Made by a program: the position numbers and the translations under genes
Origin: Escherichia phage NHEP3
Length of the DNA stretch: 44,039 nucleotides
Direction: 5' to 3' (one strand)
Sequence record: PQ511147.1
Shown: positions 40,563 to 40,594 of the stretch, in pieces
How the letters are laid out: every line of letters starts with the position of its first letter
How positions within the stretch are numbered: position 1 is the stretch's first letter
The notes under the pieces: generated by a model
Told to the model about the DNA's origin: nothing
Seen by the model: the letters and a program-made list of their open reading frames with translations, nothing else
Databases searched by the model: none

Positions 40563-40594
40563 ATATTAGATTGGTTGCAGAAGGGAGTCAACAA
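40563..40594 (-). promoter_or_regulatory. near-consensus sigma70 early promoter (TTGACT-N17-TAATAT) with a TGCAACCAA half-site in the spacer
   Basis: Read on the minus strand; motif at 40571-40579. Confidence 0.6.

Follow-up and report, generated by a model that had tools for sequence, protein, structure and literature searches.

The genome of Escherichia phage NHEP3 (PQ511147.1), which at its full length of 44,039 nucleotides (nt) is the window analysed here, carries a short word, (T)GCAACCAA(T), that is found far more often than expected, collects in the non-coding DNA, and appears to mark the promoters of early genes, middle genes and opposite-strand accessory genes (morons). We propose that this word is an asymmetric operator of 9-10 base pairs (bp), that its most likely binder is a 109-amino-acid (aa) helix-turn-helix (HTH) protein encoded at 40768-41097, and that this protein represses the early promoters, including its own. 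The binder and the repression are what we infer from sequence comparison, and we give the proposal as a whole about an even chance of being right. One sequence-specific factor for the early genes and the opposite-strand morons would be the simplest reading of the evidence that follows.

A repeated word concentrated in non-coding DNA

The 9-mer TGCAACCAA occurs 11 times in the whole genome, compared to 0.32 expected, and none of 100 shuffled sequences reached 11; its core GCAACCAA occurs 18 times, compared to 1.98 expected. Fourteen of the 18 core copies are intergenic, although non-coding DNA makes up only 6.9% of the genome (binomial P ~1e-13), and a further copy (29399) touches only the final codons of one gene. 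The repeated word is real, enriched and concentrated in non-coding DNA. The initial annotation, made by a model from the letters alone, had reported a 9-mer recurring in promoter regions; it is borne out by the shuffles, and its concern that the word might be just as frequent inside genes is answered by the intergenic excess. All of the exact copies that it listed are present (10236-10244, 10250-10258, 26345-26353, 29386-29394 on the plus strand with 29399-29407 on the minus strand, 31058-31066, 31075-31083, and, on the minus strand, 40571-40579, 43792-43800 and 43823-43831), and it had missed copies at 428-436, at 37636 and 37652 (minus strand) and at 34018 (plus strand). Among the variants that it named, those at 43384-43393, 43419-43428 and 40739-40753 are real, but the one placed at 43710-43718 actually lies at 43700-43709. 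The commonest 9-mers genome-wide, with 13-15 copies, are those of the ACGGCAGCG and AACGGCAGC types, which have no relation to the word described here. The window begins and ends with an exact 127-bp direct repeat (bases 1-127 and 43913-44039 are identical), which is most likely where the assembly of a circular or permuted genome, with a unit length of ~43,912 bp, overlaps itself, and no copy of the word lies inside this repeat.

The word had been taken for the half-site of a palindrome, TTGGTTGCAACCAA, but this 14-mer never occurs in the window, and its best matches carry 2-3 mismatches (6 found compared to 2.1 expected; 2 of 100 shuffles reach 6). When 129 distinct sites, taken from 8 genomes with CAACCAA as the seed, are tabulated by position, the base preceding the seed is G in 90% of sites and the base following it is T in 62%; the second base before the seed is weakly T, and the flanks hold no information outside (T)G-CAACCAA-(T). 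Because the flanks are uninformative and the 14-mer palindrome is absent, we take the unit to be an asymmetric 9-10-mer, (T)GCAACCAA(T), that is used in both orientations. Sites are single, or form direct pairs 9, 13-17, 22-23, 31 or 35 bp apart, or, in one case, an inverted pair. The impression of symmetry does have a small real basis, in that a looser dyad, TTGGT-N5-ACCAA, occurs three times compared to 0.01 expected, each time directly downstream of a -10 (at the Nmad5, HTH and gp55-homologue promoters). With TTGGTTGCAACCAA absent, the flanks uninformative, and only these three loose dyads and one inverted pair to be found, a dyad-symmetric operator of 14-17 bp (lambda/434/P22 type) was rejected, as was a GntR/PdhR-type dyad. 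A sigma-54 promoter (TGGCAC-N5-TTGCA), which needs a GG element 10-11 bp upstream of the TTGCA, was rejected on the same lack of information in the flanks, with which the contexts read directly agree.

The word is also conserved. The related phages SSL-2009a, CHD5UKE2 and BF9 have 20-22 copies each, in syntenic places. When seven control regions were compared, with up to 16 distinct relatives aligned, 8 of 120 site columns were variable compared to 519 of 1384 neighbouring columns (Fisher P 5e-14, a value that is only indicative, as neither columns nor sequences are independent), and the site is under purifying selection. It is invariant in relatives whose proteins are about 60-70% identical, in which the HTH of the protein at 40768-41097 is nearly invariant as well. 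In four metagenomic relatives, in which the shared proteins are mostly ~40-80% identical to those of the window, GCAACCAA is the commonest 8-mer and is held at places equivalent to those in the window. In the leftward early promoter, P_L, of distant relatives, two tandem copies 9 bp apart exactly fill the spacer (TTGAC-GCAACCAA-C-GCAACCAA-TC-TAATAT), and in the promoter of the HTH gene, P_R, the metagenomic relatives have a full copy between the -10 and the start codon. The relatives L124, L125, L127 and L129 carry GCAACCAA at the position of the P_R dyad, with TGCAACCAA in three of the four. A scan of IMG/VR for TGCAACCAA-N3-12-GCAACCAA returned more than 120 mostly unrelated single matches, the pattern being too unspecific for finding other phage groups.

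Promoters that carry the word

We compared the sites with predicted sigma-70 promoters from a strict scan (at least 9 of 12 matches) and a lax scan (at least 8 of 12 matches). The strict scan overlaps only three sites, at two promoters, P_L and the promoter of the gene for the single-stranded DNA (ssDNA)-binding protein. With the lax scan, 14 of the 18 sites overlap a sigma-70-like match, so that the earlier claim that each copy sits at a sigma-70 promoter holds for most copies but fails for four, which are named below. As background, such matches cover 14% of positions overall and 34% of those between genes; against the latter, which is a high rate, the promoter overlap of the intergenic set has a P value of ~3e-4. 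The overlapped part varies and may be the -35, the spacer, the -10 or the +1. Read in reverse, the word either supplies a -35-like TTGCAn (31079, 34021, 43796) or, as TATATTGGTTGCA, overlaps the -10 (10243, 43819). All eight of the predicted promoter matches that were assigned to genes face their downstream gene; these are the genes for the Nmad5 moron, the gp30 homologue, the ligase-like protein, the Lar-like protein, the ssDNA-binding protein, the gp51 homologue and the gp55 homologue, and the match internal to the gp56 gene. Orientation is mixed, since in the leftward block of replication and nucleotide-metabolism genes (40366 to 28194) four copies are co-directional and four opposite (29387, 31059, 31076 and 34018 on the plus strand versus 29399, 37636, 37652 and 40571 on the minus strand).

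The word is absent from stretches between genes in which terminators are the only elements (28770-28811, 33745-33790, 36739-36796 and 39776-39823) and from the best candidates for late promoters, those of the terS, scaffold and major tail protein genes. It thus seems to mark one class of promoters (early, middle and moron) and not intergenic DNA at large, and the initial wording, 'on most promoters', was too broad, because late-gene promoters have no site. A site-bearing promoter of the form TTGACT-t-GCAACCAA-...-CATACT-GCAACCAA is found in relatives at L001 (SSL-2009a) 43334-43364, L129 10747-10777 and L125 15304; it precedes small genes that are absent from the window, and the equivalent place in the window has a terminator only (2891-2912).

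This variety of placement bears on the idea that the word is simply part of a promoter, read directly by the sigma-70 polymerase or spread by duplication of promoter cassettes. Indeed, TTGCA within the word can act as a -35, and CCAATAT or TATATTGG is found next to -10-like hexamers. However, the register and the orientation of the word relative to the -35 and -10 both vary, and in P_L the whole copy is in the spacer, flanked by hexamers that give a good match by themselves. Moreover, the 8 core positions are all conserved and the adjoining bases are not, which excludes a duplicated cassette. We consider this idea the least probable of all those weighed here. A middle promoter of the T4 MotA-box type was also rejected, since the site adjoins the -35 or the -10, or follows the -10, in both orientations.

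The candidate regulator at 40768-41097

The HTH protein encoded from 40768 had been named as the obvious candidate for the regulator. It matches the Pfam families HTH_23 (30.8 bits, cut-off 24.6) and Sigma70_r4_2 (28.1 bits, cut-off 25.7), and its AlphaFold2 model (predicted local distance difference test score 88.9) has helices at residues 21-79, 84-91 and 95-107. Of its HTH, ~34-49 residues superpose at 1-1.7 Å on DeoR, SdiA and GerE, and the protein belongs to the tri-helical HTH class (sigma-70 region 4, LuxR/GerE and resolvase C-terminal domain), an assignment of fold class only. A sequence search of the PDB with the protein gave no informative homologue, and Foldseek with the model gave only local HTH matches, with non-significant E-values of 0.7 or higher. 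Other homologues were found only in Dhillonvirus-like phages, and none in 5,426 complete E. coli genomes. Among 24 homologues the N-terminal 45 residues are highly variable and residues 47-106, which include the recognition helix STVRSW, are almost invariant. Databases call the protein a transposase (PHROGs and GenBank), a resolvase or the Gam nuclease inhibitor, 'DNA recombination nuclease inhibitor gamma' (both GenBank). We reject these identities: the 109 aa hold helices and an HTH alone, with no DDE or serine-recombinase catalytic domain and no Gam homology, and the names, which come from the resemblance of the HTH, look like annotation errors.

In a Pfam search with 21 phage proteins, including all those encoded beside P_L and P_R, the only other DNA-binding domain was in the small terminase subunit. 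We favour the 40768-41097 protein as the binder because it has the sole HTH detected among the early proteins examined and because the site or a variant of it lies at its own promoter. Furthermore, its DNA-reading helices are near-invariant wherever the site is invariant. On these three points the choice made in the initial annotation is a probable one.

The behaviour of a possible origin of replication points in the same direction. A ~200-bp block is present twice, with 87% identity, at 43445-43645 (after the helicase-primase gene) and at 15950-16150 (between the tail-chaperone and tape-measure genes). Each block has about six GCGGGACA iterons and a conserved hairpin (CCCAGTCTTTCAGACTAGACGGGGGG...CCCCCCTCGTCTGAGACTG), and those downstream of the helicase-primase gene span 43479-43640. 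The iteron differs in relatives (GGTGCCA in L127, GTGTGGCA in L129), while the hairpin stays and the surrounding GCAACCAA sites are unchanged. The changing GCGGGACA repeat would thus behave as an origin specificity element, and the pair of blocks looks like a two-part replication origin, an arrangement that is presumably comparable to ori and crr of phage P4. A segment of the helicase-primase that tracks the iteron type was looked for, with no clear pattern. The operator word, dispersed and invariant, was rejected as the origin iteron; the GCGGGACA repeats fit that definition instead. Since the iterons change while GCAACCAA and the HTH stay constant, the word is assigned to the HTH protein by elimination and co-invariance, which is an argument and not proof.

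The same evidence bears on the alternative that the operator is bound by a different phage protein, one with no recognisable DNA-binding domain, and that the HTH protein serves replication, for instance as an origin helper. The HTH gene does lie directly upstream of the helicase-primase gene and adjoins the iteron block, and many of the early proteins match nothing in Pfam and no PHROG with a function. However, the iterons differ among relatives whereas the HTH is near-invariant, and relatives with the site do not have conserved versions of the small proteins gp49 and gp50. We therefore regard a different phage binder as rather unlikely. It is very unlikely, in our view, that the site belongs to a host transcription factor exploited by the phage. 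Such a factor would explain why the site is invariant across phages with diverged proteins, and ATTGGT/ACCAAT presumably resembles the arms of GntR/FadR-type boxes. But in those boxes two arms form a dyad around a short spacer of fixed length, and a second arm is missing at most sites here; nothing in the 5,426 E. coli genomes matches the control region, and a host repressor site on nearly all early promoters of a lytic phage is hard to rationalise.

With the HTH protein as the binder, we envisage the following scheme. One or two copies of the site would lie within the RNA-polymerase footprint (-35, spacer, -10 or +1) of about nine sigma-70-type promoters, which would drive the replication and nucleotide-metabolism genes, small early genes, the opposite-strand morons and the regulator itself. 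The regulator, whose gene opens the rightward early operon, would be made early; as it accumulates it would fill the sites and exclude the host polymerase, limiting its own synthesis and shutting down early and middle transcription, and late promoters without sites would stay active. Conservation, the tie to promoters and the absence from late promoters support the earlier suggestion of a single regulator of early genes and opposite-strand morons, and that it acts as a repressor and not as an activator we infer from how the sites are placed. Some carriers have good -35 and -10 hexamers 17-18 bp apart (P_L, the ssDNA-binding-protein promoter, and TTGACT-18-CATACT in SSL-2009a), and these hexamers at optimal spacing, together with the varied position and orientation of the sites, make promoter occlusion the most economical mechanism, over activation with a fixed geometry.

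Several observations weigh against this scheme. At the promoters with TTGCAn at the -35, the protein could aid polymerase rather than block it. This would suit an activator or a two-way switch, in which the same protein recruits polymerase through TTGGTTGCA at the -35, as Mu Mor/C and phi29 p4 do, and represses through sites in the spacer or at +1; with the placement just described, we consider this unlikely, although it deserves to be kept in mind. Part of the promoter overlap is circular, because several of the -35 hexamers (TTGCAn) are supplied by the word itself. The lax scan found no overlapping promoter match at 26346 (none convincing for the whole copy at 26345-26354), 43385, 43701 or 20882. 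CHD5UKE2 lacks the P_R site although it keeps all the others, and its version of the HTH protein is only 47% identical across the tblastn-aligned residues 45-103. No relative was found with both an altered HTH and an altered site, so that the association is one of co-occurrence and not of covariation. Other conserved early proteins with no assigned function, such as the gp51 homologue, are possible binders as well. Finally, the copies that flank the iteron block hint at a second, replication-related role. These include a perfect 13-nt inverted repeat containing the word, CGCATTGGTTGCC (43381-43393) and GGCAACCAATGCG (43700-43712), whose arms lie 306 nt apart and bracket the iterons, and which may link the regulator to the origin.

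This last point enters a more elaborate version of our proposal, which we find distinctly doubtful. The 109-aa protein would be a coiled-coil dimer with two loosely tethered HTH heads like sigma region 4, each reading one asymmetric 9-bp site, so that it could bridge sites of any orientation at 9-35 bp. It would time the whole early programme via promoter spacers and couple shut-off to the origin through the inverted copies that bracket the iterons. If this were true, one small protein would both time the early programme of a virulent phage and couple transcriptional shut-off to origin function.

Genome layout and comparison with known systems

The window is the complete genome of a Dhillonvirus, a lytic E. 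coli siphophage of the HK578/SSL-2009a/JL1 type, and ~150 Escherichia and Shigella Dhillonvirus phages match it, mostly at 90-95% nucleotide identity. Gene positions were carried over from the SSL-2009a annotation via tblastn. A rightward block from ~43853, round the junction, to 28161 has the small early, lysis, terminase, head and tail genes, and the leftward block covers 40366 to 28194. Between them a short rightward operon holds the HTH gene and the helicase-primase gene (41108-43372), which are almost certainly co-transcribed. Three opposite-strand morons or accessory genes lie in the late region, among them the Nmad5-domain gene (9449-10213) and Cor (26072-26290). Neither integrase nor lysogeny genes appear in the annotation of the close relative, and scans of the window against Rfam and for tRNAs gave no hits. 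The positions of the sites, promoters and regulator are given in Table 1.

Table 1. Operator copies, predicted promoters and the candidate regulator in the window
Feature	Position	Strand	Remarks
Candidate regulator, 109 aa	40768-41097	+	Variable N-terminus, long central helix, C-terminal HTH
P_L, TTGACT-17-TAATAT	40563-40591	-	Leftward early operon, gp51 homologue through exonuclease; 9/12 match
Operator copy TGCAACCAAT	40570-40579	-	In P_L spacer; ATTGGTTGC invariant in 8/8 aligned relatives, flanks vary
P_R, TTGACA-17-TAGTTT	40708-40736	+	Serves HTH and helicase-primase genes; -35 and -10 conserved among relatives
Dyad variant TTGGTCATTAACCAA	40739-40753	none	Directly downstream of P_R -10; candidate autoregulatory site
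ssDNA-binding-protein promoter, TTGACC-17-TAGATT	37673-37645	-	One copy adjoins -10, other directly after
Two direct copies (37652-37659, 37636-37643)	37636-37659	-	Flank -10 of ssDNA-binding-protein gene promoter
Copy AGCAACCAAT	34017-34026	+	Reverse strand supplies -35 (TTGCTG) of Lar-like gene promoter; conserved in L001, L002
Lar-like gene promoter, TTGCTG-17-TATAGT	33993-34021		Lax scan match
Two direct copies 17 bp apart	31058-31084	+	On minus strand one supplies -35 (TTGCAT), other fills spacer
Ligase-like and methyltransferase gene promoter, TTGCAT-17-TATATT	31051-31079	-	Carries copies at 31058-31084
Perfect 9+9 inverted pair TGCAACCAA-ccta-TTGGTTGCA	29386-29407	+ (29386-29394), - (29399-29407)	
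gp30/gp29-homologue promoter, TTGCAA-18-TATCTT	29379-29408		Contains inverted pair 29386-29407
Single copy, degenerate CAACCAA 12 bp upstream	26345-26354	+	Between divergent Cor and tail-fibre genes
Nmad5-domain moron (gp07 homologue) promoter, TTGCAT-18-TATATT	10243-10272	-	
Two direct copies 14 bp apart	10236-10259	+	Overlap spacer and -10/+1 of leftward Nmad5-moron promoter
Dyad TTGGTGTGCAACCAA	10230-10244		Nmad5-moron promoter
gp55-homologue promoter (rightward), TTGCAC-17-TATATT	43796-43824	+	ATG at 43853
Two copies 31 bp apart (43792-43800, 43823-43831)	43791-43831	-	At gp55-homologue promoter; on plus strand one supplies -35 (TTGCAC), other overlaps -10 (TATATTGGTTGCA); layout recurs with different spacing in L124, L127, L129
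Two GGCAACCAAT copies 35 bp apart	43381-43428	-	Directly after helicase-primase stop; equivalent pairs in L124, L125, L127, L129
GGCAACCAATGCG	43700-43712	+	Perfect 13-nt inverted partner of 43381-43393 (CGCATTGGTTGCC)
Copy in gp56-homologue coding sequence	428-437	+	Weak internal promoter-like match 427-455; conserved in L001, L002; function uncertain
Late promoter candidate, terS (small terminase)	~4366-4375		Extended -10 cTGtTATAAT; no word
Late promoter candidate, scaffold gene	10280-10307		TTGAGA-16-TAATAT; no word
Late promoter candidate, major tail protein gene	14297-14325		TTGGCG-17-TATCAT; no word

A few features adjoin these. The copy of GCAACCAA at 20882-20889, within the minor tail protein gene, is kept in relatives and has no promoter context; it probably reflects coding constraint or is one of 1-2 chance copies. 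The gp55-homologue gene spans the junction at the window ends, and a 37-aa open reading frame at 43743-43856 (gp54 in SSL-2009a) occupies the same place as the gp55 promoter with its two operator copies and is unlikely to be a real gene. The best sigma-70-like match near P_L and P_R is on the minus strand at 40695-40667 (TTGAAA-17-AATAAT, with an upstream TG) and faces a strong intrinsic terminator on the same strand at ~40640-40600, with a T9 run, 55-60 nt downstream. This unit (40600-40695), which lies between P_L and P_R, is conserved in Dhillonviruses, has no Rfam match and could encode a small RNA.

Dhillonviruses are common lytic coliphages in therapy collections and in screens for defence systems, with over 150 sequenced genomes. 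The literature that we searched has nothing on Dhillonvirus transcription control, and when the word itself was searched for, the only matches were unrelated primers. The word would offer a candidate regulon of about nine promoters, a candidate master regulator that is mislabelled in databases as a transposase, resolvase or Gam inhibitor, and a simple model of the early-to-late switch, and phage engineers would gain short promoter-plus-operator cassettes. One regulator acting on many operators is a textbook principle, and the value of the finding is descriptive and not conceptual: the system is most likely a gene switch of an ordinary kind, with a predicted binder, that the searched literature had not described for this group.

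The likeness to several known systems is partial. The T4 MotA box is, like the word, a phage-specific 9-bp sequence common to a temporal class of promoters, but it has a fixed position (~-30) and orientation and replaces the -35, whereas here the word does neither. Mu Mor and C are small dimeric activators with a C-terminal HTH that bind one dyad just upstream of and overlapping the -35 of promoters that have no -35 hexamer; unlike them, the system here has many site positions, including the spacer and +1, and its protein has no Pfam match to Mor. The divergent P_L and P_R, the adjoining regulator gene and the site at its own promoter recall lambda CI and Cro, but there is no 14-17-bp dyad operator, no triple operator array and no Cro or CI domain match above the cut-off.

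Phage P1 C1 and the repressor of the Streptomyces phage phiC31 belong to temperate-phage immunity systems with longer, 17-bp sites. P1 C1 operators are asymmetric and sometimes form inverted pairs, and the phiC31 repressor binds conserved inverted repeats at many early promoters. The differences here are a 9-10-bp site, a virulent phage and a 109-aa coiled-coil and HTH protein with no detectable sequence relationship to either; what is shared is one regulator with more than 10 operators that overlap the promoters of many separate units. Mycobacteriophage L5 is likewise temperate, and its immunity repressor, gp71, binds 13-bp asymmetric operators and 'stoperators', the latter in one orientation, to block elongation. 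NHEP3 differs from L5 in the mixed orientation of the sites relative to transcription, in their position on promoter cores, in having no annotated lysogeny genes and in the absence of a detected sequence relationship, the Pfam and PDB searches showing a generic HTH only and no immunity repressor homologous to gp71 or C1. Like the L5 system, however, that of NHEP3 has the features of a dispersed asymmetric operator, namely a short asymmetric consensus with many (here more than 10) copies concentrated between genes, a presumed HTH reader, and no need for a dyad.
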